A stretch of 64,000 bases of DNA from Planctomycetota bacterium (GCA_025459175.1 JALORC010000012.1:23978-87977), one strand, 5' to 3'; shown: positions 1 through 43,400, counted from the first letter of the stretch. Notes: generated from the sequence alone by a model not told the origin. Numbers and translations are program-made.

Positions 1-2721
1 CTCGGCGGCGACGCGAAGAAGATCAACCCGCTGGTGCCGTGCGACCTGGTCATCGACCACAGCGTGCAGGTCGATGCGTTCGCCAGCAGCAGCGCCGAAC
101 AGGACAACCTGAAGCTCGAGTTCGAACGCAACCAGGAGCGCTACGAGTTCCTGAAGTGGGGCCAGCAGTCGTTGACCAACTTCCGCGTCGTGCCGCCGGG
201 CATGGGCATCGTGCACCAGGTCAACCTCGAGTACCTGGCCAGCGGCGTGCTGCACAAGCAGGACGGTACCGACACGATCGCCTACCCGGACACCGTGGTC
301 GGCACCGACTCGCACACGACGATGATCAACGGTCTCGGCGTGCTCGGCTGGGGCGTCGGTGGCATCGAGGCCGAGGCAGTGATGCTCGGCCAGCCGACCT
401 ACATGCTGCTGCCCGAGGTCGTCGGCATGGAGCTGCAGGGCAAGCTGCCGGAAGGGGCGACCGCGACCGACCTGGTGCTGACCGCGACGCAGTTGCTGCG
501 CAAGCACGGGGTGGTCAACAAGTTCGTCGAGTTCTACGGCTCCGGCATCGCCGCGATGTCGCTGGCCGACCGCGCCACGATCGCGAACATGGCGCCGGAG
601 TACGGCGCCACGATGGGCTTCTTCCCGGTCGACGCCGAGACCTGCCGCTTCCTCGAGCGCAGCGGCCGCAGCAAGGAGCAGGTGGCGCTGGTCGAGGCGT
701 ACTACAAGGCGCAGGGCCTGTTCTGGACCGCCGACGCGCCGGTGCCCGAGTACAGCAGCAAGCTGGTGCTCGACCTCGGCACCGTGGTGCCGAGCCTCGC
801 CGGCCCCAAGCGCCCGCAGGATCGCGTGCCGCTCGCGGCGATGCAGAAGGACTTCCGGCAGGGCCTGCAGAAGGACGTCAAGGACCGCGGCTTCGGCCTG
901 TTCGGCGAACAGCTCGCCGCCAGCGCCACGGTCGCCGACGGTACCGACGCGAAGATCGCGCACGGCGCGGTCGTGATCGCCGCGATCACGTCGTGCACCA
1001 ACACCAGCAACCCGTCGGTGATGCTCGGCGCCGGCCTGTTGGCGAAAAAGGCCGCGGCCAAGGGCCTGACGCGCAAGCCGTGGGTCAAGACCTCGCTGGC
1101 GCCCGGCTCGCGCGTGGTCACCGACTACCTGCAGAAGGCCGGGGTGATGCCGGCGCTGCAGCAGCTCGGCTTCGACGTGGTCGGCTACGGCTGCACGACC
1201 TGCATCGGCAACAGCGGTCCGCTGCCGGCCCCGGTGTCGGCGGCGATCAAGGACGGCAACCTGGTCGCGGCCGCGGTGCTGTCCGGCAACCGCAACTTCG
1301 AGGGCCGCGTCAATCCCGACGTGAAGGCCAACTACCTCGCTTCGCCGCCGCTGGTGGTCGCCTACGCGCTGGCCGGCACCGTCGACATCGATCTCGAGAC
1401 CCAGCCGCTCGGCAACGGCAGCGACGGCCAGCCGGTGTATCTGCGCGACATCTGGCCGAGCCAGCAGGAGATCGCCGACGCGATCGCGAGCAGCATGTCG
1501 CCGCAGGCGTTCATCAAGCAGTACGGCACCGTCGACCAGGGCCCGCCGCCGTGGCGCAAGATCAAGGCGAAGCAGAGCGACCTGTTCGCGTTCCAGGCCG
1601 CGAGCACCTACATCCAGGAGCCGCCGTTCTTCACCACGATGACGCGCGAGGTCGGCACCATCGGGCGCATCCTCGGCGCCCGCGCGCTCGCGGTGCTCGG
1701 TGACTCGGTGACCACCGACCACATCAGCCCGGCCGGCAACATCAAGAAGGACAGCCCCGCCGGCCGCTTCCTGCTCGACAACGGCGTGCAGCCGGCCGAC
1801 TTCAACCAGTACGGCGCGCGCCGCGGCAACGATCGCGTGATGACGCGCGGCACGTTCGCCAACATCCGGCTGCGCAACTTCCTGGTGCAGCAGGAAGGTG
1901 GCATGACCAAGCACCTGCCGAGCGGCGAGACGATGGCGATCTACGACGCATCGATGAAGTACCAGCAGGAAGGCACGCCGCTGTGTGTGCTCGCCGGCAA
2001 GGAGTACGGCACCGGCAGTTCGCGCGACTGGGCGGCGAAGGGCACGTTCCTGCTCGGCGTCAAGTTCGTGCTCGCCGAGAGCTACGAGCGCATCCACCGC
2101 AGCAACCTGGTCGGCATGGGCGTGCTGCCGCTCGAGTACCTGCCGGGTCAGACCCGCGACAGCCTCGGGCTCACCGGCCACGAGACGTTCGATGTCGCGG
2201 TCGACGACGCGGTGCAGCCGCGCCAGCAGCTGACGGTCACCGCGATCCACCCGGAGACCGGCAAGGTGACGACGTTCCAGGCGCAGTGCCGCATCGACAC
2301 GCCGGTCGAGGTCGACTACTTCCGCAACGGCGGCATCCTGCAGACCGTGCTGCGCAAGCTGCTGGCGCCGGCGGCCGGCAAGACGGTCGCGAAGGCGAAG
2401 GCGAAGGCCGCGCCTGCCAAGGCCAAGGTCGCCGCCAAGCCGAAGGTCGCGACCAAGGGCAAGGCCGCGCCGGTCGCCAAGGCCAGCAAGAAGCCTGCAG
2501 CGAAAGCCGTGACGGCGAAGTCGGTCGGCAAGCCCGCCGCGAGCAAGGTCGCCGCGAAGCCGGCAACCGCGAAGAAGCCGGCCGCCAAGCCGGGCAAGAA
2601 GGTCGACAAGAAGGTGACCGCCAAGCCGGCCACCAAGAAGGCGGTCGCGAAGAAGCCTGCGGCGAAGGCGAAGCCGGTGGCCAAGAAGGCGGCCAAGAAG
2701 GCCAAGGCGCGCGGCCGCTGA
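1..2721 (+). CDS. acnA: Aconitate hydratase A, 5'-truncated at the window edge, with a C-terminal Lys/Ala-rich histone-H1-like extension
   Basis: Frame 1 is open from nt 1. Aconitase motifs are present ([51 protein letters not shown]). The last ~125 aa are KAAK/AKPA repeats ([17 protein letters not shown]...KKAKARGR) in the same frame. Confidence 0.9.
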
Positions 2722-2758
2722 GCGGTCCGCGCCCTTCCGCGCGCACGGCCGCGCGGCG

Positions 2759-3682
2759 ATGCTGGCCGCCATGCTGCGCCACCTCGCTGCGTCGGCCGTG
2801 CTGCTGTTCGCGTCCGCCTGCTCGATGGCTCCGAGGCCGCCGCTCGCCGAACTGACGGCCGACCTGCGTGCCCTCGCCGACACGGTGCGCGGCGACGTCG
2901 GCATCTACGTGCGCGACCTGCGCACCGGCGACGAGGTGGCGATCGCGGCCGACACGCCGTTCCCGACCGCCAGCATGATCAAGGTGCCGATCCTCGGCGC
3001 GTTGCTGGCCAAGGTCGACCGCGGCGAGCTCGACTATCACCAGCAGCTCACCTACACGAAGGATCGGCGCTACGCCGGCGAGGACCTGCTCGGTGCGTTC
3101 GCCGACGGCGAGCAGGTCGAACTGTCGAAGGTCGCGATGCTGATGATCACCACCAGCGACAACACCGCGTCGCTGTGGTGCCAGGAGCTCGCCGGCACGG
3201 GTACCGCGATCAACGACTGGCTCGCGACACTCGGCTTCGCCGTGACCCGCGTCAACTCGCGCACGCCCGGTCGCAGCGCCGAACAGAAGGAGTTCGGCTG
3301 GGGCGTCACCACCCCGCGCGAGATGGCCGAGCTGCTGGTCGCCGCGCGCGACGGGCGGCTCGGCAGCGCGGCGATGTGCGAGGAGCTGCGGCGGTGCCTC
3401 GCGCGCATCTACTGGGACGCCGAGGCGCTGGCGTCGATCCCACCCGAGGTGCACACGCTGAGCAAGCAGGGCGCCGTCAACCGTTCGCGCAGCGAGGCGG
3501 TGCTGGTGCACGCCCCCGCCAGCGACTACGTGTTCTGCGTGATCACGAGGAACCAGCAGGACCAGAGCTGGGGCCGCGACAACGAAGGCTACGTGCTGCT
3601 GCGCGCGGTGTCGGCGCGGCTGTGGCGCCACTTCGCGCCCGAGCGGCCGTATGCGCCGCCGGCCGGACACGAGCGCTTCTGA
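2759..3682 (+). CDS. Class A beta-lactamase-family serine hydrolase, probable lipoprotein
   Basis: S-x-x-K (ASMIK) and SDN (TSDNTA) motifs and a K-x-G triad (KQG). The N-terminal signal has a Cys (LLFASAC). Confidence 0.65.
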   Translation: MLAAMLRHLAASAVLLFASACSMAPRPPLAELTADLRALADTVRGDVGIYVRDLRTGDEVAIAADTPFPTASMIKVPILGALLAKVDRGELDYHQQLTYTKDRRYAGEDLLGAFADGEQVELSKVAMLMITTSDNTASLWCQELAGTGTAINDWLATLGFAVTRVNSRTPGRSAEQKEFGWGVTTPREMAELLVAARDGRLGSAAMCEELRRCLARIYWDAEALASIPPEVHTLSKQGAVNRSRSEAVLVHAPASDYVFCVITRNQQDQSWGRDNEGYVLLRAVSARLWRHFAPERPYAPPAGHERF

Positions 3683-3718
3683 GGCAAACCAGGGAACGGC
3701 GGCCCGGCTGGTCGACGC

Positions 3719-5029
3719 TCACACCAGGCGCCGCTTCACCAACGCCCCGCGCCGCCGCTTCTCGTCGCCGACCGGCATCGCCGCGGCGACCCGTTCTGCC
3801 GCCGCCTGCGCCGCCGCCGCGGTGCGCGCGTGCACGAACGCCAGCGCATCGCCGGTCTGCACGGCGTCGCCGAGGCCGTGCTTGAGCACGATGCCGACCT
3901 GTGGATCGATCGCGTCGCTCGGCTGCCGGCGACCGCCGCCGAGGTCGACGACGACGTGGCCGAGCGCCAGCGGATCGACGTCGACGACGAAGCCGGGCCG
4001 CCGCGCCTCGACCGCGACCACGTGCGGCGCGCGGCCGAGCAGCGACACGTCGTCGAGCACGCGCGGATCCCCGCCCTGCAGTTCGAGGTTGTGGCGGAAC
4101 ACCTGGCGCACGACGCCGTCCTGCCACAACCGCACCAGCGTGGCCCGCGCCGAGTCGAGGTCGCCGGCGACCCCGGCGAGCAGCAGCATCTCGGCACCGA
4201 GCGCCAGCGTGACCTCGCGCAGGTCGTCGGGACACGGCCCGTCCAGCGCCTGCACGACCTCGATCACCTCGAGGCTGTTGCCGAGTGCCTGCCCGAGCGG
4301 GTGATCCATGTCGGTCAGCAGCGCCGCCATCTTGATGCCGGCCGCCCGCCCCACCGCGACCAGGCTCTCCATCAGCGAGATCGCGTCGTGCTCCTGCACC
4401 ATGAACGCCGCGCGCCCGGTCTTCACGTCCATCACCAGCCCGTCGATGCCCTCGGCGAGCTTCTTCGACAGGATCGAACTGGTGATCAGCGGGATGCTCT
4501 CGACGGTGCCGCTGATGTCGCGCGTCGCGTACATGCGGCGGTCGGCCGGCGCGATCTCGGCGCTCGGCGCGGCCATCGCATACCCACACTGCTCGAGCAC
4601 CTGCTGGAAGCGTTCGATCGACAGGTCGGTGCGATAACCGGGCAGCGCGGCGAGTTTGTCGATGGTGCCACCGGTGTGACCGAGCCCTCGCCCACTGACC
4701 ATCGGCACCGCCACCCCGGCCGCAGCGACCAGCGGCGCCAGCAGCAGCGACACCTTGTCACCGACCCCGCCGGTCGAGTGCTTGTCGATCTTCGGTCGGG
4801 TCACGTGCGGGTGCTGCAGCACGCGCCCGGAGTCGCGCATCGCCAGCGTCAGCGCCGCGGTCTCCGCCGGCGTCATGCCGTTGCAGCAGACGGCCATCAG
4901 GAACGCCCCGAGCTGCGCATCGCCGAGCGAACCGTCGACGACACCGCTGACGAGATCGCGGATCTCCGCGGGCCCGAGTTCGCCGGCGTCGCGCTTCCTG
5001 GCGATCAGCCGCGCTGGATGATTGTGCAT
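3719..5029 (-). CDS. deoA: Thymidine/pyrimidine-nucleoside phosphorylase
   Basis: HSTGGVGDK signature, glycosyltransferase family 3 N-terminal region, about 436 aa. Confidence 0.85.
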   Translation of the reverse strand: MHNHPARLIARKRDAGELGPAEIRDLVSGVVDGSLGDAQLGAFLMAVCCNGMTPAETAALTLAMRDSGRVLQHPHVTRPKIDKHSTGGVGDKVSLLLAPLVAAAGVAVPMVSGRGLGHTGGTIDKLAALPGYRTDLSIERFQQVLEQCGYAMAAPSAEIAPADRRMYATRDISGTVESIPLITSSILSKKLAEGIDGLVMDVKTGRAAFMVQEHDAISLMESLVAVGRAAGIKMAALLTDMDHPLGQALGNSLEVIEVVQALDGPCPDDLREVTLALGAEMLLLAGVAGDLDSARATLVRLWQDGVVRQVFRHNLELQGGDPRVLDDVSLLGRAPHVVAVEARRPGFVVDVDPLALGHVVVDLGGGRRQPSDAIDPQVGIVLKHGLGDAVQTGDALAFVHARTAAAAQAAAERVAAAMPVGDEKRRRGALVKRRLV

Positions 5030-5056
5030 GGTGTCTCTTCCCCTACTGCAGGCGCG

Positions 5057-5905
5057 TCACGGTGCGACCGGGTGCCACAGCGTCTTCAGCTCGACGAACG
5101 GCTCGACGAACTGCAGCGAACGCAGCTTGCCGGCCTGCGTCCAGTCGGCGGTCGGCAGGTCGCAGTAGCGCACCCGCTTGCAGTTGTCGGCGGCTGCCGC
5201 GGTCAACGCCGCATCGGGAGCACCGGCGATCAGCAGCGCGTCGATGTCACGATGCGCGGCGAACTGCGGTGCCAACTCGCTGCGCAGGCCGCTCAGCAGG
5301 TTGATCGCACCGGCCGGGATGTCGCTCGATGCACACACCTCGCCGAGTGCCAGGCCCACGAACGGGGCCGGTTCGCTGACCAGCGCCACCACCGCGTTGC
5401 CACCGACCAGCAACGGCAGCACCAGGGCCAGCGTGCCCACCAAGGATGGCGCCGCCGGCGCGATCACCCCGACCACGCCGCACGGTTCGACCGTCGAGAA
5501 GTTGAAGAACGGCCCCTGCACCGCGTTCTGGCTGCCGAGCAGGCTCTGCACCTTGTCGCACAGCCCGGCATACCAGATGGTCAGCGCGATCGCGGTGTCG
5601 AGTTCCTTGCCCGCCGCGGCCTTGCTCGCACCGCCGAGCAGCAGTTCCTGCTGCATCGCCTCGCGCCGCGACTCCAGCATCTCGGCGAGGCGATACAGCA
5701 CCTGACCGCGCAGATACGCGGTGCTGCCCGACCACGCGGCGAGTCCGGCGCGCGCGGCCTGCACCGCATCGCGCAGGTCCTTGCGGCTGCCGCGCGCGAC
5801 GTTGAGCGCCGGATTGCCGGCGGGCTGGTAGCTGCGGCCGGACTCGCTGCGCGGGAACTTGCCTCCCACGTAGAGCTTGTAGGTCTTCGGCACCGGGACG
5901 GTCAT
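5057..5905 (-). CDS. Aldehyde-dehydrogenase-family protein containing only the N-terminal/NAD-binding part (282 aa)
   Basis: N-terminus KLYVGGKF...SESGR and GGNAVVALVSEP resemble the ALDH cofactor domain. No catalytic Cys/Glu region is present. It lies directly upstream of deoA on the same strand. Confidence 0.4.
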   Translation of the reverse strand: MTVPVPKTYKLYVGGKFPRSESGRSYQPAGNPALNVARGSRKDLRDAVQAARAGLAAWSGSTAYLRGQVLYRLAEMLESRREAMQQELLLGGASKAAAGKELDTAIALTIWYAGLCDKVQSLLGSQNAVQGPFFNFSTVEPCGVVGVIAPAAPSLVGTLALVLPLLVGGNAVVALVSEPAPFVGLALGEVCASSDIPAGAINLLSGLRSELAPQFAAHRDIDALLIAGAPDAALTAAAADNCKRVRYCDLPTADWTQAGKLRSLQFVEPFVELKTLWHPVAP

Positions 5906-5981
5906 TGGTGCAAGGTGCCGAGCGGACGGCCGGGAAGCAAGCGCGGCGCGGCGCGTGCTGCGGCGTGCATTGCGCCCGCGG

Positions 5982-7187
5982 CTACCGGATCGTGAACCCG
6001 GCCGCGGTCGCGGCGGAGAACGCCGACGCAGCGCCGACCAGCACCGATTGCAGCACGCCCTGCAGCCCGACCAGCGACGGCTGCAGCGGGATCGCGATCG
6101 GGATCGCGACCGGACCGGTGATCAACCCACCGGTCAGGATGCCGAGATCGCCGCCGACCACCAGTTCGCCCAGCAGGTTCGGCAGCGCAATCGAGCCGAA
6201 GCCGGTGCCGAGCAACAGCACGAACGCCTGGTTGCCGACCTCGGCCCGGACCGTCACCGGGGTCGTGCTGCCGAGTGCGAGTTCGGTGACGCCCAACGGC
6301 AACTCGGTGCGCGCGATGGTGTCGGGCAGGCACGCCATCAGGAACGACGGCGCGCCCTGCACCGCGACCGCCGACGCCGCCGGGTCGGTGGTCAGCAACA
6401 CCGTGGCGCAGCAGCGGATCGAACCGGCGCTGCCGCCCACGTCGTGCACTGCGTGGCCGCCGAGCACGCCGAGCCACGCCCCGACTGGCGGCTGGCCGCC
6501 GACCAGATGGCAATCGACCGCCCACAGCGAGTCGCTGCCGCGGATCGCGATCGCATCGCCACCCTCGATCGACGGCGCATCCGAGCGATTGCCCTGCAGC
6601 ACCGTGCGCGTGAGCTGCACCGGCGTCGAGTCGACGAACAGCGCCGCCAACCCGGCGGTGCCGGCGGCCCCGTTGCAGCGATAGCGATAGTCGCCGGCGC
6701 GCACGCGATCGCACCACAGCGACTCGACGTCGCGCACCTCGATCAGGCCGTCGTAGGCGACGGGGCCGAAGCTGTTCGACAGCACTTCGACGGCCAGCAA
6801 GCGCACGTGGCCGAGCCCGTTGCCGGTGATGACGATCGCCGGCGCGGCGGCGGTCGCGGTCGCGCGCGCATGCGCGATGGTGACCTGCTGGAACGGCTGC
6901 AGGCCGGTGACGGTGATCGCCGGCGCGCCGCTGACCGTGAACACCGCGCCGGCACCGCTGCTCTGGTTGCCGATCACCGCGAGCTGCTTGCCCTGGATCA
7001 CGAACGGCGCGTAGGTGCCCGGGTCGACTTCGATGACGTCCCCGTTGGCGGCCGCATTCACGGCCGCCTGGATGTCGGCGAACGCGCGAGTCGGTCCGAC
7101 CTGTCGCACGATGCCCTGCGCGGCGAGCGGCGCCGGCAAAAACCACCACAGGGTCGCCGAGGCGACGGCAGCGATCCGGATCATCAT
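5982..7187 (-). CDS. Secreted right-handed beta-helix-like protein that shares the family C-terminal module
   Basis: Start chosen at MMIRIAAVASATLWWFLPAPLAAQ (signal peptide). GDVIEVDPGTYAPFVIQG resembles a pectate-lyase-like N-terminal turn. The C-terminus PLQPSLVGLQGVLQSV...AAGFTIR matches the module seen in three other secreted proteins here. Confidence 0.5.
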   Translation of the reverse strand: MMIRIAAVASATLWWFLPAPLAAQGIVRQVGPTRAFADIQAAVNAAANGDVIEVDPGTYAPFVIQGKQLAVIGNQSSGAGAVFTVSGAPAITVTGLQPFQQVTIAHARATATAAAPAIVITGNGLGHVRLLAVEVLSNSFGPVAYDGLIEVRDVESLWCDRVRAGDYRYRCNGAAGTAGLAALFVDSTPVQLTRTVLQGNRSDAPSIEGGDAIAIRGSDSLWAVDCHLVGGQPPVGAWLGVLGGHAVHDVGGSAGSIRCCATVLLTTDPAASAVAVQGAPSFLMACLPDTIARTELPLGVTELALGSTTPVTVRAEVGNQAFVLLLGTGFGSIALPNLLGELVVGGDLGILTGGLITGPVAIPIAIPLQPSLVGLQGVLQSVLVGAASAFSAATAAGFTIR

Positions 7188-11167: not shown

Positions 11168-12700
11168 TCAGCCCGGCAGCAGGCCACCCTGCAAGCGCAC
11201 ATACCCGCGCATGCCCTGCCGCCCACCCTCGCGCCCGAACCCCGACTCCTTGAAGCCACCGAACGGGCTCGCCGCATCGAAGCGGTTGAAGGTGTTGTTC
11301 CACACCACGCCGGCCTTCATGCGCTCGGCGAGCCACAGGATGCGCGCACCCTTGTCGGTCCAGATGCCGGCGCTCAATCCGTACGCGGTGTTGTTCGCCT
11401 TCTCGACCGCTTCCTCCGGCGTGCGGAACGTCAGCACGCTCAGCACCGGCCCGAAGATCTCCTCGCGCGCGATGCGGTGGCTCATCGTGACGCCGGTGAA
11501 CAGCGACGGCGGGAACCAGAACCCCTGCTTCGGCAGCGCACACTTCGGCTGGTACAGCTCACAACCACTCGCCTGCCCGTCACCGACCAGCTCGCGGATG
11601 CGCGCCAGCTGGGCCGCGCTGTGGATCGCGCCCATGTCGGTGTTCTTGTCCATCGGGTTGCCGACCCGGATCCGCGCCATGCGGCGCCGCAGCTTGTCGA
11701 CGAAGCGATCGTGCACACTCTCCTGCACCAGCAACCGCGAACCGGCGCAGCAGACGTGGCCCTGGTTGAAGAAGATGCCGCGCACGACACCCTCCACCGC
11801 CTGGTCGAGCGCCGCGTCCTCGAACACCAGATGCGCCGCCTTGCCGCCGAGTTCGAGCGTCAGCTCGACGTTGCGGCCGGCGACCGCGCGCTGGATCTCC
11901 TTGCCGACCTCGGTGCTGCCGGTGAACGCGACCTTCGCCAGCCCCGGATGCCGCACCAGCGAAGCACCGGTCTTGCCGTCACCGGTGATCACGTTGACGA
12001 CGCCCGGCGGCAGACCCGCCTGCTGGAACACCTCGCACAGCCGCAGCGCGGTCAGCGGCGACGTCTCGGCGGGCTTCAGCACCACCGTGTTGCCGGCCGC
12101 GAGCGCCGGCGCGATCTTCCACGCCGCCATCAGCAGCGGGAAGTTCCACGGGATCACCTGGCCCACGACGCCGAGCGGCTCGGGGTTCTGCCCTGGGAAC
12201 AGCAGCTCGAGCTTGTCGGCCCAACCAGCGTGGTAGAAGAAATGCTGCGCGGCGAGCGGGATGTCGACGTCACGCGTCTCCTTGATCGGCTTGCCGTTGT
12301 CGAGCGTCTCGAGGCACGCGAACTCACGCTGCCGCTCGAGCAGGATGCGCGCGATGCGGAACAGGTAGCGCGCCCGGTCCTCGCCCGACAGCTTGCGCCA
12401 GCCGACGAAGGCCTTCTGCGCCGCCTTCACCGCCGCGTCGACGTCCTGGTCGCCGGCCAGCGCGACTTCGCTGAGCACCTGCTCGGTCGCCGGATCGATG
12501 GTCGCGAAGTACTTGCCGGTCCTCGGTTTGGTCCACTGCCCACCGACGAACAGTTCGCACCGCTTCGGGATCGTGAAGTGGTCGATGCCCTCCGGCGACG
12601 GCGCGTAGTTCCACACGCCACCGAACGTCAGCTCGCGTTCGCCGCCGACCTCGGTCCCGCCCTTCGTCGCCGTCTCGGTCACAGTCTTCGTCTTGGCCAT
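11168..12700 (-). CDS. NAD-dependent aldehyde dehydrogenase
   Basis: Full ALDH: ELGGKAAHLVFEDA (Glu motif), FFNQGHVCCAGSRLLV (catalytic Cys), GTVVLKPAETSP. Start MAKTKTV at 12700. Confidence 0.85.
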   Translation of the reverse strand: MAKTKTVTETATKGGTEVGGERELTFGGVWNYAPSPEGIDHFTIPKRCELFVGGQWTKPRTGKYFATIDPATEQVLSEVALAGDQDVDAAVKAAQKAFVGWRKLSGEDRARYLFRIARILLERQREFACLETLDNGKPIKETRDVDIPLAAQHFFYHAGWADKLELLFPGQNPEPLGVVGQVIPWNFPLLMAAWKIAPALAAGNTVVLKPAETSPLTALRLCEVFQQAGLPPGVVNVITGDGKTGASLVRHPGLAKVAFTGSTEVGKEIQRAVAGRNVELTLELGGKAAHLVFEDAALDQAVEGVVRGIFFNQGHVCCAGSRLLVQESVHDRFVDKLRRRMARIRVGNPMDKNTDMGAIHSAAQLARIRELVGDGQASGCELYQPKCALPKQGFWFPPSLFTGVTMSHRIAREEIFGPVLSVLTFRTPEEAVEKANNTAYGLSAGIWTDKGARILWLAERMKAGVVWNNTFNRFDAASPFGGFKESGFGREGGRQGMRGYVRLQGGLLPG

Positions 12701-12714
12701 GGCTGTTGTCTCGT

Positions 12715-13620
12715 TCAATCGGCGCTGAAGTCGGTGGCGCGCTGGTAGCGGCCGGTGCGTTCCTTCTCGATCTGCATGCACACGTCGGTCAGCAGCGCGC
12801 TGGCGCCGAACCGGAACCACTGCGGGTGCAGCCACCGATCGCCGCAGGTCTCGGCAACCAGCACCAGGTACTTCAACGCGTCCTTGCCGGTGCGGATGCC
12901 GCCGGCGGCCTTCACGCCGACCATGTGCCCGGTCTCGAGATACCAGTCGCGCACCATCTCGAGCATCAGCAGCACCACCGGCAGCGTGCTCGCCGGCGTC
13001 ACCTTGCCGGTGCTGGTCTTCAGGAAGTCGGCGCCGCCGAGCAACGCGATGTGGCAGGCGCGGCGGATGTTGTCGTAGGTCTTCAGCTCGCCGGTCTCGA
13101 GGATCACCTTCAGGTGGGCGGCGCCGCACGCCTGCTTCACCGCGACGATCTCGTCGTACACGAAGCGATGGTCGCCGGCGAGGAACGCGCCGCGGTCGAT
13201 CACCATGTCGATCTCGGTGGCGCCGGCGGCGACCGCGAGTTCGACCTCGCGCAGCTTGGTCGGCCGATCGGTGCGCCCGGCCGGGAAGCCGGTGGCGACC
13301 GACGCGACCTGCACCGCGGTGCCGCGGCACGCCTGCACCGCGGTCGCCACCAGGTCCGGATAGACGCAGACCGCCGCACAACTCGGCACGTCGTCGCGCT
13401 GCGGCAGCGGCCGGATCGCCTTGCGGCACAGCTGGCGGACCTTGCCCGGCGTGTCCATGCCCTCGAGCGTGGTCAGGTCCATCATCGAGATCGCCAGCTG
13501 CAGCCCCTGCACCTTGCTGGCCTTCTTGATCGACCGGGTGCCGAGGTCGGCGGCGCGGGTCTCGAGCGCGATCGCGTCGACGGGGCTGGTGTGGAACTCG
13601 GACGGCGACAGGGCGGCCAT
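12715..13620 (-). CDS. deoC: Deoxyribose-phosphate aldolase (long form)
   Basis: DeoC motifs (VCVYP..., LKTSTGK Schiff-base Lys region, IDMVIDRG). Lies 14 nt upstream of the ALDH start on the same strand. Confidence 0.8.
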   Translation of the reverse strand: MAALSPSEFHTSPVDAIALETRAADLGTRSIKKASKVQGLQLAISMMDLTTLEGMDTPGKVRQLCRKAIRPLPQRDDVPSCAAVCVYPDLVATAVQACRGTAVQVASVATGFPAGRTDRPTKLREVELAVAAGATEIDMVIDRGAFLAGDHRFVYDEIVAVKQACGAAHLKVILETGELKTYDNIRRACHIALLGGADFLKTSTGKVTPASTLPVVLLMLEMVRDWYLETGHMVGVKAAGGIRTGKDALKYLVLVAETCGDRWLHPQWFRFGASALLTDVCMQIEKERTGRYQRATDFSAD

Positions 13621-13734
13621 GGCAGGCGGGCATCGTGCCCGCGCGGCGGCGCGAAGTCGACCACGAGGCTGGGCTCGAGCGCTCGCGGCAGTCGGATCCG
13701 GATTCGACTGCAACTTCGCGGGACCCGAACGGGG

Positions 13735-14400
13735 ATGTCCCGGCGGAGCCGCGGCGGCGACATGTGCGTGATCCCAACTATCGACCTATGGCCGCGGCTG
13801 CGGCGCTTGCTGCAACGGTTCGCCTACGGCGACCGCGCCGAGGACGTGGTGCAGGAGGCGACGCTGCGGCTGTGGCGGCGCTTCGGCGCCGAGCCGCCGC
13901 TCCGTGATGCCGTGCAGCTCGGCCGCAAGATGGTGCACGACTTGCTGGTCGACGATCACCGCCGACGCCGGCCCCAGCTGCTCGGCGATGCCGATGCCGG
14001 CCTGCCGAGCCGGCCGCCCCACCACGCGTTCGACTCACTGGCGGCGCTGGTCGGCGATGCCGCGCTGGTCCGAGCCCTCGGTCCGCGGGCGCTGCAGTTG
14101 CTCGAACTGCTCCTGGCCGGCGAGCGGCGCAACCGCGTGTTGGCGGTCTTGCTCGGCACGTCGCCGGCCGCGATCCGCCGCCGCCGCGCGCGCATCGCCC
14201 GCATCCTGAACGACCATCTGCGGCGTGAATTGCCCGCCGGCAGCGGCGTCGAGGATCCCTCCGAACGGTCTGTGGACGACGGTTTCCGATCATCCCAAGG
14301 AGGCTTCCAGTGTCACGAGTCCAAGTCCTGTCCACGTCCTTGCCAGCCGGCGGCGCCACCGCCGGGCGACGACGGCCCGCCCAGATCCATGCCAGAGTGA
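13735..14400 (+). CDS. ECF-like sigma factor with a C-terminal extension
   Basis: Sigma region 2-like EDVVQEATLRLWRRF and region 4-like LLELLLAGERRNRVLAVLLGTSPAAIRRRRARIARIL. Its stop TGA 14398-14400 overlaps GTG 14397 of the next gene. Confidence 0.45.
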   Translation: MSRRSRGGDMCVIPTIDLWPRLRRLLQRFAYGDRAEDVVQEATLRLWRRFGAEPPLRDAVQLGRKMVHDLLVDDHRRRRPQLLGDADAGLPSRPPHHAFDSLAALVGDAALVRALGPRALQLLELLLAGERRNRVLAVLLGTSPAAIRRRRARIARILNDHLRRELPAGSGVEDPSERSVDDGFRSSQGGFQCHESKSCPRPCQPAAPPPGDDGPPRSMPE

Positions 14401-17711: not shown

Positions 17712-18125
17712 CTACTGCCGACCGCGCTCGACGTCGCCGAACGTGAACGGGTCCGGCAGCAGATCGCGCAGCATCGCCTGCCGCCGGACCCCACCGCGGC
17801 CGACCATCACCACCTGCATGCCGAGCCCGAACTCGGCCAGCACCTGGCGACACGCGCCGCACGGCCGCGCCGGCTCGTCGAGGTCGGTGACCACCGCGAC
17901 CGCGACCAGGTCGCGCGCGCCGGCGGCGACCGCGGCGGCGACCGCGTTGCGTTCGGCGCAGACGGTCAGCCCATAGCTCGCGTTCTCGACGTTGCAGCCG
18001 ACGAACACCCGGCCGTCGACCGCCCGCACCGCCGCCCCGACCTGGAACCGCGACGCCGGCGCGTAGGCGTTCGCCCGCACCGCGGTGGCGGCGGTGACCA
18101 GCGCGTCGACCGCGGCGCGATCCAT
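17712..18125 (-). CDS. cdd: Cytidine deaminase
   Basis: CAERNAV and PCGACRQ zinc-binding motifs, 138 aa. Confidence 0.85.
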   Translation of the reverse strand: MDRAAVDALVTAATAVRANAYAPASRFQVGAAVRAVDGRVFVGCNVENASYGLTVCAERNAVAAAVAAGARDLVAVAVVTDLDEPARPCGACRQVLAEFGLGMQVVMVGRGGVRRQAMLRDLLPDPFTFGDVERGRQ

Positions 18126-18592
18126 CACCGCACCTCCCGCCAGCTGCCGAACATCAGCGCCAACAGCGTCGCCGCGTAGCTGCCGAGCTGCAGCGCACAG
18201 ACGCCATAGGCGAGCAGCGAACCGTGGTGGTCGATCGCGACCTCGAGGTCGGCATGCCCCTGCAGCAGCAGGTAGCCGGCCGCGACCGCGCCGATCGACG
18301 CCAGCGCCGCCCACAGCCGCAGGTCGGTGTTGACCCGGTCGAGCAAGCGACCGAGGAACCACAGGATCGGCAGCCCGCCGAGCAACGTCGGCCAGAGCCA
18401 GCTCGGCGGCGCCGTGCCGACCCCGGACAGGAAGCAGGCCCAGATGCCCGCCATCGCGCCGATGCCGAACAGCTGCCCGCCGTGGCCCGGCCACAGCACG
18501 CCCAGCGCGCAGCCGCCGGCGAAGATCGCCGGCAACAGCCACTGGAAGCGCGCCCGCACCGCGGGGCGGGTCAACGTCACGAGCTCGGTCAT
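18125..18592 (-). CDS. Small polytopic membrane protein whose stop overlaps the cdd start
   Basis: Four predicted TM segments, with a TGATG overlap onto cdd. Confidence 0.45.
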   Translation of the reverse strand: MTELVTLTRPAVRARFQWLLPAIFAGGCALGVLWPGHGGQLFGIGAMAGIWACFLSGVGTAPPSWLWPTLLGGLPILWFLGRLLDRVNTDLRLWAALASIGAVAAGYLLLQGHADLEVAIDHHGSLLAYGVCALQLGSYAATLLALMFGSWREVR

Positions 18593-18689
18593 GGCACGGG
18601 GTCGGGCCCGGCTGGGCCGGGCGAGAGGGGCGGAGCATCATGGCGACGCCGGGGGCGCAGGGAAAGCCCGCCGTCGCTAGCATCCGCGC

Positions 18690-19952
18690 GTGACCGATCC
18701 CGCCGCCGTTCCCGCCGCCACCACCCTCGGCGGCATTGCCGCGGCCGAACTGGCCGCGAGATACGGCACCCCACTCTACGTGTTCGACGCGGCGGTGCTG
18801 CGCGCCCGCGTCGCCATGGTGCAGGCGGCACTCGGTCCGCGCGTGCGGCTGCTGTGGTCGATCAAGGCGAACCCGTCGCTCGCCGTCACCACGGTGTTGC
18901 GGCACGCGGGCACCGCTGCCGAGCTCGCCTCGCTCGGCGAACTGCACCTGGCGCTGGCGGCCGGGCACCCCGCGACCGCGCTGCGCTTCGCTGGCCCCGG
19001 CAAGACCGACGCCGAGCTGACCGCGGCGCTGCGCGCCGGCGTCGGCTGCTTCCACGTCGAGTCGTTCGACGAGATCACCGCATTGGCGCGCCTCGCGACG
19101 GCGACCGCGGCACCGGCCCGGGTGGCGCTGCGGATCAACCTGCCGCAGCAACTCGGCGGCGCCCGCATGCGCATGGGCGGCCACGGCGCGCGTTTCGGCA
19201 TCGACGCCGCAGACGCCGTTGCGGCGGCGCGCGCAGTGCAGGCAGCGCCGTCGCTGCAGCTGTGTGGTCTGCACGTCTACGGCGGCACCCAGCTGTTCGA
19301 CGCCGGCGCGTTCGTGCGCCAGGCCGAGCAGCTGTGCGAACTGGCCACGGCCCTGGAGGCCGAGCTCGGCGCGGCGCTGCCCGAACTCGACCTCGGCGGC
19401 GGCTTCGGCGTGCCCGCCTATGAAGGCGACCCCGAGTTCGATCTCGCCGCCGCCGGGCGCGGCCTGCAGGCCGTGCTGCAGCGCTTCGACCGCCCCGACC
19501 GGATCTGGTTCGTCGAACTCGGCCGGTTCCTCGCCGCCCCCGCCGGCACCTATCTGACCCGCGTCGTGCGCACCCGGCACAGCGGCGGCACCGCCCATGC
19601 GATCGTCGACGGCGGCCTGCACCAGCACGCCGCCGCCGCCGGCGTCGGCACCGTGGTGCGGCGACCGCCGTTGCTCGAACGCACCGACGGCCGCCCCGGC
19701 ACCGCGGCCTGCACCATCGGCGGCCCGCTGTGCACCCCGGCCGACCAGTTCGCCGCCGATCTCCCGATCGGACCGCTCGCGATCGGCGATCTGTTGCAGA
19801 TCCGCAACAGCGGCGCCTACGGCCTCAGCTACAGCCCGCACGGCTTCCTGAGCCATGCGACCCCCGCCGAGGTGATGGTCGACGGCGGTGCGGCGCGCAT
19901 CGTGCGCGAGCGCGGCGACGCCGCCGCGGTGCTGGTCGGTCAACGGCCCTGA
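18690..19952 (+). CDS. Fold-type III PLP-dependent decarboxylase (diaminopimelate/ornithine decarboxylase family)
   Basis: TPLYVFD...SIKAN PLP-Lys region and a C-terminal beta-domain with GGPLCTPAD and NSGAYG. Confidence 0.7.
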   Translation: MTDPAAVPAATTLGGIAAAELAARYGTPLYVFDAAVLRARVAMVQAALGPRVRLLWSIKANPSLAVTTVLRHAGTAAELASLGELHLALAAGHPATALRFAGPGKTDAELTAALRAGVGCFHVESFDEITALARLATATAAPARVALRINLPQQLGGARMRMGGHGARFGIDAADAVAAARAVQAAPSLQLCGLHVYGGTQLFDAGAFVRQAEQLCELATALEAELGAALPELDLGGGFGVPAYEGDPEFDLAAAGRGLQAVLQRFDRPDRIWFVELGRFLAAPAGTYLTRVVRTRHSGGTAHAIVDGGLHQHAAAAGVGTVVRRPPLLERTDGRPGTAACTIGGPLCTPADQFAADLPIGPLAIGDLLQIRNSGAYGLSYSPHGFLSHATPAEVMVDGGAARIVRERGDAAAVLVGQRP

Positions 19953-20009
19953 GCGCCGCGGACGAAGCTGCGACACCCGGCGGAGCCGACGCGGCGATAT
20001 CCTGCGGCG

Positions 20010-22211
20010 ATGCGTTCCCGCTTGTTGCTGTCGCTGGTGGTGTCTTGGGTCTCGTCGTCTTCGATCACTTGCCAGGAGGGTGTGCCGGCACCGCAGGGCC
20101 TGGTGCCCGAGCAGATGTGGTTCGCCCCCACTGCCGCGGACTGGCAGAAGCCGGTGGCGATCCGCTGGCAGCGCACCTGGGACGACGCGGTGCGGCTGTC
20201 GCAGCAGACCAAGCGCCCGATCCTGGTCTGCGTCAACATGGACGGCGAGATCGCCAGCGAACACTACGCCGGCGTGCGCTACCGCGACCCGGAGCTGGCC
20301 AAGCTGTGGGAACCGTACGTGTGCGTGATCGCGTCGGTCTACCGCCACACCCCGCGCGACCACGACGACGAAGGTCGCCGCATCCCGTGCCCGCGGCTCG
20401 GCCATGTCACCTGCGGCGAACACATGGCGATGGAGCCGATCGTCTACGAGAAGTTCCTCGACGGCAAACGCATCTCGCCGCGCCACATCATGGTCGAGCT
20501 CGACGGCAGCGAGGTCTACGACGTGTTCTACACGTGGGACACGCAGTCGGTGTTCGACACGCTGCGCGACGGCATCAAGAACCGCAAGCTGCAGGCGCCG
20601 CCGATCGTCAAGGGCGATCGTTCGATCCGCGAGCAGCTGCAGAGTCCCGACAGCGCCGATCGCGAGGCGATCGAGAGCATGTTCCGGGCCGCCACGCCGG
20701 AGCAGCGGCAGGAGCTGATGGCGCTGGCGCTCGCCGAGGGTGAGCGAGCGCCGATCGAGCTGCTGCGGCAGGCGGCGTGGAGCCTCGATCCCGAACTCGT
20801 CAAGCAGGCCCGCGCCGGCATGCTGCAGGCCGCCGATCCCGGCACCGTCGAGCTGATCGCCGACACGCTGAAGGCGCCGCTGCTGGCCGAGGAACGCAAG
20901 GCGTTGGCGCAGTCGCTGCGTCGCTTCGCCGGCAGTTCGGTGCGGGCGCAGAGTCTCGCCGCCGCGCACAGCGGCCTCGCCGGCGGCAGTTCGGCGATCG
21001 ATGCGAACAGCTGGAGCCAGGTGCTGGCCGGGCAGAGCTACGCGAGTGCCGCCGGCGCCGATCCGGCCGCCGCCGCCACCGCGCGCGACGAGGCGCTGCG
21101 CGACAAGCCGATGGACGCGACCGCGCGCCTCGACGTCGCCGAGTCGAACCTGCTGCAGGCGTTCGAGGTCACCGCCGGTGCCGGCCGCGGCAGCGTTCGC
21201 CTCGCCGCGCGGCAGCGCGAACTGCTGCTCGCCGATGCCAGCCGCCATCTCGACGCCGCCGCGGCGGCCGGTGCGGCCGGCTGGCGCCCGCTGGCGCTGC
21301 AGGCGCTTCTGCACTGCGAGCGGCAGCAGATGCCGAAGGCCTACGAGCTGGCGATCCAGGCCGCACCGTTGCTGCCGCCCGACGCGCCGGGCCGCGTGGC
21401 GATGGAGGTGCTGGCGCTGTTCGCCGCCGCCCGCCAGGAAGCCATCGTCGCCGCGGTGCGCAGCAAGCAGGAGTGGGACCCTGCGTGGATGACCGACATC
21501 CACACGACCTACAGCCTGCTGCGCCAGCACCCGCTCGGCACCGACCGGCAGGTCGCGATGCACTTCGACTTCCTGCAGTTCTTCGGCGCGCCGGACCTCG
21601 ACCAGCTGCTGCAAGCGGGGCTCGAGCGCTTCCCGGCCTCGGCGCTGCTGCACGAACGGTGGCGCCAGCGGCTGCTCGAGCAGCGCGGTCCGGATGGCCT
21701 CGAAGCCGCCTACGCCGAGCGCCTCGCCGCGACCTCGGCGACACCGGCCGAGGCGTGGTTCGCCGGCTATGCGAGCCTGTGCGCCGCCGAGGCGCATCGC
21801 CGCACCTCGCAGCCGGACGCGGCCGCGGCGGCCTACCAACGCGGCATCGGCCATTTCGAACGCTATGCCGCGGCCAGCGGCAACAGCGACGGTGCGCACT
21901 ACGTGGCGATGGCACACGGCGGTCTGGCGCGGCTCCGGCTGCAGCAGGACGACCTGCCCGGCACGTTCGCCGCGCTGCAGCGCGTGTTCGCGATCGCGCC
22001 GGCGGCCGCCGCCGCCACCGACGGTCTCGGCATCACCGCGATGCAGACCGCCGAGATGCTGCGCGGCAAGGCCCTCGACCGGAAGGACGAGGCGCTGCTG
22101 GCGCAACTGCAGGCGGCGCTGCAAGAGCTGCCGCCGGAGGCGTTCGAACTGCCCGAGTACGAGCGGGCGTCGCGCGGTCAGGGCAACGGCGGCGCTCGCC
22201 GCCGCCGCTGA
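20010..22211 (+). CDS. Secreted thioredoxin-fold (Thioredoxin_7-like, no CxxC) domain protein with a long alpha-helical repeat region
   Basis: Signal peptide. KRPILVCVNMDGE...YVCVIASV resembles a DUF255/Thioredoxin_7 fold lacking the redox Cys pair, followed by about 500 aa of Ala/Leu-rich helices. Confidence 0.4.
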   Translation: MRSRLLLSLVVSWVSSSSITCQEGVPAPQGLVPEQMWFAPTAADWQKPVAIRWQRTWDDAVRLSQQTKRPILVCVNMDGEIASEHYAGVRYRDPELAKLWEPYVCVIASVYRHTPRDHDDEGRRIPCPRLGHVTCGEHMAMEPIVYEKFLDGKRISPRHIMVELDGSEVYDVFYTWDTQSVFDTLRDGIKNRKLQAPPIVKGDRSIREQLQSPDSADREAIESMFRAATPEQRQELMALALAEGERAPIELLRQAAWSLDPELVKQARAGMLQAADPGTVELIADTLKAPLLAEERKALAQSLRRFAGSSVRAQSLAAAHSGLAGGSSAIDANSWSQVLAGQSYASAAGADPAAAATARDEALRDKPMDATARLDVAESNLLQAFEVTAGAGRGSVRLAARQRELLLADASRHLDAAAAAGAAGWRPLALQALLHCERQQMPKAYELAIQAAPLLPPDAPGRVAMEVLALFAAARQEAIVAAVRSKQEWDPAWMTDIHTTYSLLRQHPLGTDRQVAMHFDFLQFFGAPDLDQLLQAGLERFPASALLHERWRQRLLEQRGPDGLEAAYAERLAATSATPAEAWFAGYASLCAAEAHRRTSQPDAAAAAYQRGIGHFERYAAASGNSDGAHYVAMAHGGLARLRLQQDDLPGTFAALQRVFAIAPAAAAATDGLGITAMQTAEMLRGKALDRKDEALLAQLQAALQELPPEAFELPEYERASRGQGNGGARRRR

Positions 22212-40420: not shown

Positions 40421-43400
40421 ATGAGCACCGAACTGCCGACCAAATACGAACCGCAGACCCTCGAGCCCGCCGTGACCGCGCGCTGGCTCACCACCAAGGC
40501 GTTCGCGGCGCTGCCCGACCAGCGGCAGCACCGCTACGTCGTGATGATGCCGCTGCCGAACGTCACCGGCGCGCTGCACATGGGGCACGCGATGGACAAC
40601 GTGATGCAGGATCTGCTGATCCGCTGGCACCGCATGCAGGGTGACAACACGCTGTGGCAGGCGGGCACCGACCACGCCGGCATCGCCACCCAGGCGGTGG
40701 TCGAGAAGCGGCTCAAGGAGCTCGAGGGCAAGACCCGCCACGACGTCGGCCGCCAGGCGCTGGTCGCCCGCATCCACGACTGGGCGGCGCAGAGCCAGCA
40801 GCGCATCCGCAGCCAGCAGCAGGCGATGGGCTGCTCGTGCGACTGGGACCGCGCCCGCTTCACGATGGACGAGGTGTGTGCACCGGCGGTGCGGCAGACG
40901 TTCTTCGCGATGTTCCGCGACGGCCTGATCTTCCGCGGCAACCGGCTGGTCAACTGGGACTGCGCGCTGCAGACCGCGGTCGCCGACGACGAGCTCTACA
41001 CCGAGAGCGTGCAGGGCAAGTTCTACTACCTGCGCTACCCGGTGCTCGACCCGCAGCCCGGGGAGCCCACGCACGTGATGGTGGCGACCACGCGGCCGGA
41101 GACGATGCTCGGCGACACCGCGGTGGCGGTGCACCCCGATCCGGCGGCGGCGATGCAGGCGGCGATCGCCGCCGCCGCGCAGAAGCTGGCCGAGGCGCCG
41201 GCCAAGGACAAGGCCGCGGCCGAACAGGAGCTCGAGCGGCTGCGCACGCGCCAGGCCGAGGACCTGCCGCAACTGCTGCGCATCAGCGCGCTGGCGCAGG
41301 CCGGCCGCAAGGTCAAGCTGCCGCTGGTCGACCGCACGATCCCGATCCTCGCCGACAGCTGGGCCGATCCGAGCCTCGGCACCGGCGTGGTCAAGATCAC
41401 GCCGGCGCACGACCCCAACGACTACGCGGTGTGGCAGCGCCACCAGCACATCGGCGCCGTCAACGTGCTGAACGCCGACGGCACCATCAACCAGCACGGC
41501 GGCAGCTACCAGGGCCTCGATCGCTTCGCTGCGCGCCAGCGCGTGATGGCGGACCTGCAGGCGCTCGGCCTCGTCGAGCGCGTCGAGGACCGCGTCATCG
41601 AGATCGCGCACAGCGATCGCAGCAAGACGATCGTCGAGCCGTACCTGAGCAAGCAGTGGTTCGTGCGAATGGCCGACCTCGACGGCGGCGTCGTGATGGG
41701 CCGCGGCACGCAGAAGGAGTTCCGCGGCAAGGGCCTGGCGCAGGTCGCGATCGACGCCAGCGCCGGCGCGCTGCCGCCGTTCGCCGATGGCACGCCGCGC
41801 GCGAAGGTGGCGTTCCATCCGGATCCGGAGCGCTACCGCAAGATGTACGACCAGTGGCTCGCCGAGAAGCGCGACTGGTGCATCAGCCGCCAGCTCTGGT
41901 GGGGTCACCGGATCCCGGTCTGGCGCGGTGACATGGTCGTGCAGCAGCTGCTGATGCTCGAGCCGATGCTGGCCAGCCAGCTGCAGCGCGACGACGTCGC
42001 GGCGTGGATCCTGCTGCCCGACGGCACCCGGCTGTCGCCGCGCGACGCCTTCGCGCACTTGAAGGGACCGAACGCCCCCACCACCGTCGAGGTGCAGGTG
42101 TGCTTCCGCGACGCCAGCGCCGACGGCAGCATCGGCGCGATGCTGCAGGGCGTCGGCCTCGAGCTCGACCCCGACGTGCTCGACACCTGGTTCAGCTCGG
42201 CGCTGTGGCCGCACAGCACGCTCGGCTGGCCGCACCCCGACCGCGCCAAGGTCGATGCCGGCCAGACACCGCTCGGTGCCGCCGCCGGGCGACCCGATGC
42301 GCTGTCGTACTACTACCCGGGTTCGTGCCTGGTCACCGGCCGCGACATCATCACGCTGTGGGTCGCGCGCATGGTGCTGACCGGGCTCTACAACCTCGGC
42401 GACGTGCCATTCACCGACGTGTTCCTGCACGCGACGATCCTCGACGGCAAGGGCGAGCGGATGAGCAAGAGCAAGGGCAACGGCATCGACCCGCTCGACA
42501 TCATCAGCCGCTACGGCGCCGACGCGCTGCGCTACGTGGTCTGCGAGCTGCAGACCGGCACCCAGGACATCCGGCTGCCGGTGGCGGCGATCTCGCCGTT
42601 CACCGCGCCGGGCGAACCGGAGCGCCTGGTCGACCTCGCCACCGCGAAGCCCGGCCCGTACCTCGGCACGTTCCTCGATCCCGAGACCAAGCAGCCGATG
42701 GACCTGATCGGCCAGTACGGCAAGCAGGGCATCGCGCCGGCCAAGGCCACCAGCGAACGCTTCGTGGTCGGCGCCAACTTCTGCAACAAGCTGTTCAACG
42801 CGGCGCGGTTCGCGTTCCTGAACCTGAGCGGCGCGCCGTTCCGGCCGCTCGATCCGCGCGCACTCGCACTCGAGGACCGCTGGATCCTGTCGCGGCTGCA
42901 GAACGCGATCACGACCGTGCAGCAGCAGCTGCAGGGCTACAACCCGTCGGCGGCGATCGGCGCGCTGCGCGACTTCTTCTGGAACGAGCTGTGCGACTGG
43001 TATCTCGAGATGATCAAGCCGCGCTGCCGCGACGGCGCCGAGCCGGCCGCGCGCGCCACAGCCGAGCAGGTGCTGGCGGCGGTGCTCGACCAGACGCTGC
43101 GGCTGCTGCACCCGTTCGTGCCGTTCCTGACCGAGACGCTGTGGCAGAAGCTGTGCGAACTGGCGCCGGTGCGCGGCATCGTCACAGGACTGCCGACCAG
43201 TGAGCAGCTGGTGCACGCGGCGTGGCCGCGCGGTGACGCTGGTTGGCGCGCGACGGACGTCGAACAGCAGGTGGCGCTGATGCAGCAGTGGTGCGTCGCG
43301 ATCCGCGAGACGCGGGCCCGCTACCAGGTGCCGCCGAAGGACCGGCCGGCGGCGCGTTTCGTCGCCGACGGCGAGGCGGCGACGCTGCTGCGCGCGGTGG

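Follow-up and report, generated by a model that had tools for sequence, protein, structure and literature searches.

Aconitase A (AcnA) in a clade of uncultured Planctomycetota ends in a long polycationic tail rich in lysine, alanine, and proline, which was encountered at the start of a 64-kb window (the whole stretch of DNA analyzed, 64,000 nucleotides). The tail is a real, in-frame part of the enzyme. Because some Alphaproteobacteria (the Ferrovibrio group) have independently gained a similar extension at the opposite terminus of AcnA, the tail probably tethers aconitase to DNA, RNA, or another polyanion. To the narrower reading, in which it would bind nucleic acid electrostatically and without sequence specificity, we assign a probability of about 0.5, an estimate based on composition and analogy.

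The aconitase core

The acnA frame is open from the window edge (base 1) to a TGA codon, and the part of the gene that lies within the window is 1–2721. The N-terminal 110 residues are encoded upstream of the window start. The complete protein of 1,016 residues was recovered as P0001 from JGI metagenome contig 3300037462, and the identical protein is on file at NCBI and JGI. Pfam searches of the window frame returned Aconitase (6.4e-152) followed by Aconitase_C (1.7e-40), and the AcnA equivalog model of NCBIfam, TIGR01341, scored 1346.6 bits (trusted cutoff 945), with model positions 2–876 of 876 placed on residues 19–898; the domain order is 1-2-3-linker-4, as in the AcnA/IRP1 family. As this match is complete at residue 898, the end of the aconitase was set at the last helix, at nt 2364 (Table 1).

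In a 56-sequence alignment, the Fe-S cysteines C442, C508, and C511 were invariant, as were long runs of active-site sequence. The nearest solved structures were those of IRP1 (2b3x and 3sn2), aligned over residues 22–897. Given the full equivalog match and the invariant Fe-S cysteines, we take the enzyme to be intact: by its sequence, the acnA product looks like a functional, catalytically competent IRP1-type aconitase A. Rfam and tRNA scans of the 64-kb window gave no match, and a scan for promoters and terminators around the acnA gene end gave nothing above shuffled sequences.

Table 1. Features of acnA and its C-terminal tail, in window coordinates
Feature	Position	Strand	Basis
AcnA catalytic core	1..2364	+	residues 111–898 of 1016-aa protein
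Last helix of domain 4 ([12 protein letters not shown])	2329..2364	+	AlphaFold helix 889–898; C-termini of other AcnA
K/A/P-rich polycationic tail, predicted disordered, 118 aa, net charge +38	2365..2718	+	composition, AlphaFold, codon usage, orthologs
Short imperfect tandem DNA repeats in tail	2389–2408 (period 6); 2411–2468 (period 18); 2537–2593 (period 30); 2679–2702 (period 12)	+	Tandem Repeats Finder
Arg-containing C-terminal end KARGR	2704..2718	+	last residues of long tails
acnA stop codon TGA	2719..2721	+	sequence

Composition and predicted disorder of the tail

The 118 residues of the tail comprise A 41, K 37, P 12, V 11, T 6, G 5, S 3, R 2, and D 1, which corresponds to 31% K, 35% A, and 10% P (K+A+P = 76%) with one acidic residue. 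Obtaining at least 37 lysines in 118 codons has a probability of 1e-43 in random sequence of 71% GC, and of 9e-33 if the lysine frequency of the window (2.1%) is used instead, a value taken from the other proteins of the window under rough gene calls. Lysine and arginine account for 31% and 1.7% of the tail (37:2), compared with 5% and 5% of the AcnA core and 2.1% and 7.7% of the window proteome. Lysine thus far outnumbers arginine in the tail despite the 71% GC of the genome, which points to selection favoring lysine as such.

AlphaFold modeling with the 56-sequence alignment gave a confident core, and residues 901–1016 had a pLDDT of ~30 and no secondary structure; from this model, the tail is predicted to be intrinsically disordered. 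At the DNA level, four repeats of two to three copies each span 2389..2702. These are likely a substrate for slippage-driven changes in length. They do not amount to a regular tetra- or pentapeptide array, and the K-to-K spacings in the tails are a mixture of 1, 2, and 4. Across the clade, the tail termini are mostly R/K-rich (RGR, KRR, GRR, GKR, and others), arginine being otherwise rare in the tail.

The tail as an in-frame part of AcnA

No stop codon lies between the AcnA core and the tail, and there is therefore no need for a separate gene defined by its own Met and ribosome-binding site (RBS). Codon usage was closely matched on both sides of the junction: the tail has a GC3 of 0.95 and the AcnA body one of 0.965, both parts use AAG for 36 lysines and AAA for one, and the choice of alanine and arginine codons is likewise the same. 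Two more members of the cluster that groups the window protein with its relatives at ≥90% identity, from JGI and ENA assemblies, are also tailed. Since 51 orthologs share the junction, both a frameshift and a separate small gene are excluded, and the tail is confirmed as a real, in-frame part of AcnA. That acnA was joined to a small histone-like gene through the loss of a stop codon, or through a frameshift in sequencing or assembly, was an a priori possibility raised by an earlier note on this DNA and nothing more, and it can be set aside as vanishingly improbable given that the same architecture occurs in dozens of independent JGI, NCBI, and ENA assemblies, that codon statistics are continuous over the junction, and that no free-standing K-rich gene was found beside acnA in tail-less relatives (734 kb scanned, with a single match that was itself fused to AcnA).

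In its other statements about the tail, the earlier note was partly borne out. It had described an extension of AcnA that was in frame, strongly basic, and low in complexity, and the open frame, the continuous codon usage, the 51 orthologs, and the net charge of +38 all agree with this. Its length of roughly 125 residues and the tail sequence that it quoted are correct, with 118 residues lying after the end of the AcnA model. The comparison of orthologs that it had called for gave the shared junction described above and hence neither a frameshift nor a separate small protein. Two details required correction: position 2340, given as the tail start, still belongs to the last aconitase helix and precedes the true junction (2364/2365) by 25 nt, and the term "KAAK repeat" does not fit a region that holds just short imperfect DNA repeats with periods of 6–30.

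Two further reading frames that overlap this region were rejected as genes. The antisense ORF at 2316–2705 (FLAAFLA...) simply mirrors the Lys/Ala codons of the tail; both its GC3 pattern and that of the +2-frame ORF at 1983–2855 are those of an off-frame shadow.

Distribution and divergence of the tail among orthologs

We examined the 120 best homologs of the window protein. A K/A/P-rich tail of 63–171 residues (median 100) follows directly after RKLL in 51 of them; a further 11 have an extension of 12–59 residues, ten of these being K-rich at 14–46 residues, and 55 end 0–5 residues after the last helix. The homologs were drawn from many independent JGI, NCBI, and ENA assemblies, and those that carry a name are nearly all from metagenome-assembled genomes (MAGs) of Planctomycetota. 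One homolog cluster carries inconsistent bin labels.

Over the 51 long tails, the mean composition is 28% K, 29% A, 14% P, 5.5% R, and 1.2% D+E, with F, W, Y, I, L, M, and C together making up 1.3% on average. Net charge ranges from +19 to +59, and the commonest 4-mers are KPAA, AKKP, and AAKK. The cores of these orthologs have diverged by up to ~30%, and the tails have been kept without frameshifts or premature stops. Within the window protein's own ≥90% identity cluster, cores are 97–98% identical and gapless, tails are 62–64% identical with ~20 gap columns, and tail lengths are 110, 118, and 133 residues. Comparison of these predicted proteins shows that, throughout a whole clade of uncultured Planctomycetota, the tail keeps its composition, its length class, and its place on the enzyme. 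The best explanation is that selection acts on the charge and composition of the tail, and not on its sequence.

In a neighbor-joining tree of the cores, the long-tailed proteins form one large clade, which includes the window protein, and a second, smaller clade, with tail-less and short-tailed groups sitting between the two. One protein, P0042, is without a tail, yet is nested inside a tailed clade. With sister groups that have no long tail and a tail-less member among the tailed proteins, the tail is dispensable in evolution. This dispensability speaks against a tethering role.

The acnA loci of GTDB genomes, taken from among the matches listed and consisting mostly of distant AcnA with three clade members, served as a negative control. 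At the 74 loci in which an aligned 14-residue motif was found, which belong to Planctomycetota outside the clade and to other phyla, the stop codon falls 2–11 residues past this motif. Together with the 55 tail-less relatives, these loci place the end of AcnA outside the tailed lineages at 0–11 residues after the last helix. We also used the core alone to search clusters formed at 50% identity from 1.84 billion proteins. The terminal helix is present in 47 of the top 150 family representatives, and one of these 47 has a K-rich tail, being a fragment from the same clade; as the clade is collapsed at 50% identity, this count shows just that tails are uncommon among representatives.

Within these genomes, the tail was specific to AcnA over the DNA that was scanned. 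A six-frame scan of the 64-kb window for K/A/P-rich stretches returned the AcnA tail as its sole match, and 129 kb of clade acnA loci (L001, taken from the contig of the window protein and overlapping the window, plus six clade relatives; GC 67–75%) held no such stretch except the AcnA tail. A proteome-wide habit of K-rich tails was rejected within the 64-kb window and the 129 kb of clade loci. Further tailed proteins may exist elsewhere in these genomes.

A lysine-rich N-terminal extension in Alphaproteobacteria

The K/A/P scan was also applied to 734 kb of other GTDB acnA loci and gave a single match, at locus L073 from a Ferrovibrio terrae MAG (Alphaproteobacteria). The acnA ORF at this locus (3662–6679, 1,005 residues) starts with ~100 K/A/V-rich residues. 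This extension is in frame with AcnA and uninterrupted by a stop, and the canonical start position lacks a Met; an RBS-like AAAGGA lies 8 nt upstream of the GTG at 3662, and GC3 is 0.845 in the extension versus 0.874 in the core. A search with the L073 protein yielded 19 cluster representatives with a K-rich N-terminal extension reaching ~35–100 residues beyond the canonical N-terminus. The extended proteins fall into two alphaproteobacterial clades, and ~100 close relatives have no extension. P0318, an NCBI model of 893 residues that is nested among the extended sequences, begins just past the extension, which means that annotation can hide an N-terminal extension of this kind. Short alphaproteobacterial isoforms of AcnA are possibly made from an internal start. 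As it occupies the opposite terminus and belongs to a different phylum, the alphaproteobacterial extension was gained by this enzyme independently. Cultured strains of Ferrovibrio exist.

Comparison with known basic tails and moonlighting aconitases

The earlier note had likened the tail to histone H1 and AlgP. This likeness stands for composition and does not extend to detectable homology to H1, Hc2, or AlgP: Pfam found no family on the window tail even at E ≤ 10, and a tail-only phmmer search of 5.8 billion proteins gave 8,000 word-sharing candidates with none at E ≤ 1e-3, a search in which composition correction removes everything and which therefore cannot reveal other families of tailed proteins. 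The chlamydial Hc2 model (PF07382) scored 34.2 bits on the tail of the ortholog P0003, below the gathering score of 40, and four ortholog tails are flagged as PF07382 in precomputed annotation; the window tail is without a match. Hc2 is similarly a Lys/Ala-rich and repetitive protein, of the nucleoid, but it is built as a pentamer array, and the sub-threshold match is compositional only. [quoted passage not shown]

Among actinobacterial proteins, HupB/MDP1 has a lysine-rich tail, and TopA of Mycobacterium tuberculosis is said to have a basic C-terminal tail. In M. smegmatis, the PAKKA tail of Ku modulates DNA binding (PMC3553676). The tails of Ku, TopA, and HupB resemble that of AcnA in being basic, low-complexity C-terminal additions that a high-GC lineage has made to a conserved globular protein and that orthologs elsewhere lack. 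Their hosts, however, already bind DNA, whereas AcnA is a TCA-cycle Fe-S dehydratase of Planctomycetota.

There is also a resemblance to AlgP/PhaF of Pseudomonas and the histone H1 CTD, which share with the AcnA tail the dominance of Lys, Ala, and Pro, 4-mers of the KPAA/AKKP type, a length of ~100–150 residues, predicted disorder, a very high positive charge, and hypervariable length. The KPAA domains of AlgP and PhaF bind DNA and polyphosphate (polyP) granules; AlgP is enriched in the polyP granule proteome, and its C-terminal domain is required for polyP granule spacing (PMC9239181). The disordered region of PhaF also binds RNA (PMC12818456). AlgP differs in having 25 perfect KPAA units (PMC9239181), in contrast to the short imperfect repeats of the AcnA tail. 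AlgP, PhaF, and H1 are, moreover, small structural or regulatory hosts, whereas AcnA is a large metabolic enzyme, and no sequence homology was detected between them.

Aconitase itself is a textbook case of moonlighting: as IRP1 it acts on mRNA, as Aco1 it associates with mitochondrial DNA, and in Caulobacter it forms part of the degradosome. Both IRP1 and bacterial apo-AcnA bind RNA. Yeast Aco1 binds and stabilizes mtDNA independently of catalysis (PMC7463775), and Caulobacter aconitase, a core component of the degradosome, contacts RNase E directly and is a marker of BR-bodies (PMC9882336). These moonlighting enzymes belong to the same family as the Planctomycetota protein, for which IRP1 is the nearest solved structure. 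They differ in that the globular protein makes the contact, with no polycationic disordered region, and the Planctomycetota enzyme is known here from its sequence.

Discussion

We propose that the tail would keep aconitase attached to the nucleoid, or else within RNA-rich assemblies of the degradosome or RNP-body type. Alternatively, it may raise the affinity of the RNA-binding mode already known for apo-aconitase. The length of the tail would shift through replication slippage, while selection would see its charge and composition. Parallels would be found in the K/A/P tails of AlgP, PhaF, mycobacterial Ku, HupB, TopA, and histone H1, and in aconitase itself, as present in yeast mitochondrial nucleoids and the Caulobacter degradosome. 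Nucleic acid would be the most likely target because the characterized bacterial K/A/P tails (AlgP, PhaF, and Ku) bind DNA or RNA, and because aconitase has already been found on nucleic acid and in RNA-decay bodies. The case, and with it the suggestion in the earlier note that the tail could alter nucleic-acid binding or localization, is strengthened by the conservation of the tail over the clade, by the retention of lysine against mutational bias, and by the independent N-terminal extension. It is an argument from composition and analogy, since there is no detectable homology to characterized DNA- or RNA-binding tails. Polyphosphate, acidic proteins, and anionic lipids would be equally good ligands for a polycation of this kind.

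Because of AlgP, polyP is a serious alternative ligand, albeit an unlikely one. The tail would here bind polyP granules or chains, and so place aconitase there or regulate it in starvation. Interactions between polyP and lysine are known, and the preference for lysine over arginine in the tail fits them, as its composition and charge fit AlgP; lysine-rich stretches reportedly recur among polyP-binding proteins. Neither in the window nor in related loci, however, is acnA linked to polyP genes, and nothing specific to polyP was found. AlgP binds DNA too, so that a polyP tether and a nucleic-acid tether would be compatible.

We consider it improbable that the tail serves as a purely electrostatic aid to the enzyme, attracting citrate or isocitrate, bridging acidic metabolon partners, raising solubility, or protecting the Fe-S enzyme, with no polymer as its ligand. 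Such a role would suit an enzyme that appears catalytically intact and a tail that sits on the mobile domain 4, the gate of the active-site cleft (AlphaFold; IRP1 structures), and the fact that either terminus can carry an extension fits a bulk charge that acts independently of position. No precedent was found, however, for K/A/P tails in a role of this kind, the other enzymes sampled beside acnA are all tail-less, and a charge of +38 far exceeds what substrate steering would need.

Similarly improbable is that the tail is a functionless, disordered appendix which arose by replication slippage at a GC-rich gene end, is tolerated, and is subject to neutral drift. The short tandem DNA repeats, the fast turnover and indels among close relatives, and the absence of the tail from sister groups, with one apparent loss, would all be expected of such a process. 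It would not readily account for 51 orthologs that keep the tail at up to ~30% core divergence and free of frameshifts and premature stops, for the maintenance of K/A/P content, of a scarcity of acidic and hydrophobic residues, and of an R/K-rich terminus, for lysine (AAG) at ~30% in the tail versus 2% in the proteome, or for a second origin on the same enzyme in Alphaproteobacteria. Conservation of composition, lysine bias, and convergence make both a purely metabolic or solubility role and neutral slippage less likely.

H1-like tails on bacterial proteins and moonlighting by aconitase are both known already; what is new is their combination, its conservation over a clade, and its convergent recurrence. 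No description of a lysine-rich extension on any aconitase was found in the literature, and the Planctomycetota proteins are named simply "aconitate hydratase AcnA" in the databases. Annotation pipelines overlook such extensions, as these plain names and the start of P0318 after its extension illustrate.

If AcnA has gained a polycationic disordered arm at least twice independently, its association with nucleoids or RNA-decay condensates may be widespread and selected in bacteria, coupling TCA, iron, and redox state to RNA and DNA handling, and would be hard-wired as constitutive in these lineages, possibly with long and short isoforms in Alphaproteobacteria. We put this broader view forward tentatively, as a possibility short of even odds. 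Tailed and tail-less AcnA offer a natural system for the role of aconitase at the nucleoid, RNP bodies, or polyP granules, and the cultured strains of Ferrovibrio bring part of this question within reach of experiment.

Features of the tail and its apparent loss

We examined the C-termini of the polycationic tails carried by AcnA. Most of the 51 orthologue tails finish on an Arg/Lys-rich terminus (RGR, KRR, GRR, GKR, RSR, or ARR), as does the window AcnA, whereas these tails otherwise contain little Arg. The Arg/Lys-rich end may represent a short terminal motif. In the neighbor-joining tree, the AcnA P0042 (900 aa; 11 member sequences) has no tail yet lies inside the long-tailed clade, an apparent secondary tail loss. 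Separately, the cluster (≥90% identity) of the short-tailed AcnA P0055 has members labeled Neolewinella sp. (Bacteroidota), Planctomycetota bacterium, and Hyphomicrobiaceae bacterium, and its MAG binning or taxonomy is inconsistent. Two further long open reading frames across the tail, one antisense and one Arg/Gly-rich in the +2 frame, were rejected as genes; they are shadows that a stretch of Lys/Ala codons casts in a genome of 71% GC.

Genomic context of acnA

A predicted lipoprotein of 215–243 aa (signal peptide plus Cys) is conserved upstream of acnA, outside the window, and its gene is divergent from acnA and directly upstream in four of five clade loci. The copies share 36–60% mutual identity, with no Pfam match. 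Downstream, a class A beta-lactamase-like gene, whose product has a lipoprotein-type N-terminus, begins 38 nt beyond the acnA stop in the window, but a different gene follows acnA in L082–L085, the loci of clade relatives. The other window genes sampled were ordinary housekeeping genes. Within the 1,470-aa ORF, which is probably over-called, a cytidine deaminase domain is confined to the C-terminal end. Neither tRNA genes nor Rfam families at gathering score were found in window positions 1–64000.

Coordinates of features in the window and in acnA loci (L001, the query's own contig; L073, Ferrovibrio terrae)
Feature	Location	Strand	Accession or match
Extended acnA ORF, MAG Ferrovibrio terrae	L073 3662-6679	+	NZ_CALSAN010000013.1
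Predicted lipoprotein	L001 5128-5775	-	
Predicted lipoprotein	L082 9181-9867	-	
Predicted lipoprotein	L083 9170-9883	-	
Predicted lipoprotein	L084 6016-6684	-	
Predicted lipoprotein	L085 9181-9912	-	
+2-frame ORF over tail	window 1983-2855	+	
Antisense ORF over tail, reads [17 protein letters not shown]...	window 2316-2705	-	
Arg/Lys-rich tail end	window 2704-2718		
Beta-lactamase-like gene	window 2759-3682	+	Pfam Beta-lactamase2, 1.7e-48
Thymidine phosphorylase	window 3719-5029	-	
Aldehyde dehydrogenase	within window 11168-13777	-	
1,470-aa ORF	window 17712-22124	-	
ValRS	window 40421-43723		
SPFH/Band 7 protein	window 55705-57372		

An N-terminal arm in Alphaproteobacteria

Alphaproteobacterial AcnA proteins (P0306–P0317, P0319, P0323, P0328, P0333, P0363, P0375, and P0376) carry a K/A/V-rich N-terminal extension of ~35–100 aa that reads in frame into the canonical N-terminus. 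At L073, acnA has a GTG start with an RBS-like AAAGGA 8 nt upstream. P0318 (893 aa; NCBI “aconitate hydratase AcnA [Ferrovibrio sp.]”) groups inside the extended proteins, and its model begins MAVGQDTLK..., immediately past the extension, reflecting either a downstream start-site call or a real short isoform. Extended proteins are spread over two clades, with ~100 close relatives lacking the extension. In these Alphaproteobacteria the same enzyme, AcnA, gained its polycationic arm independently.
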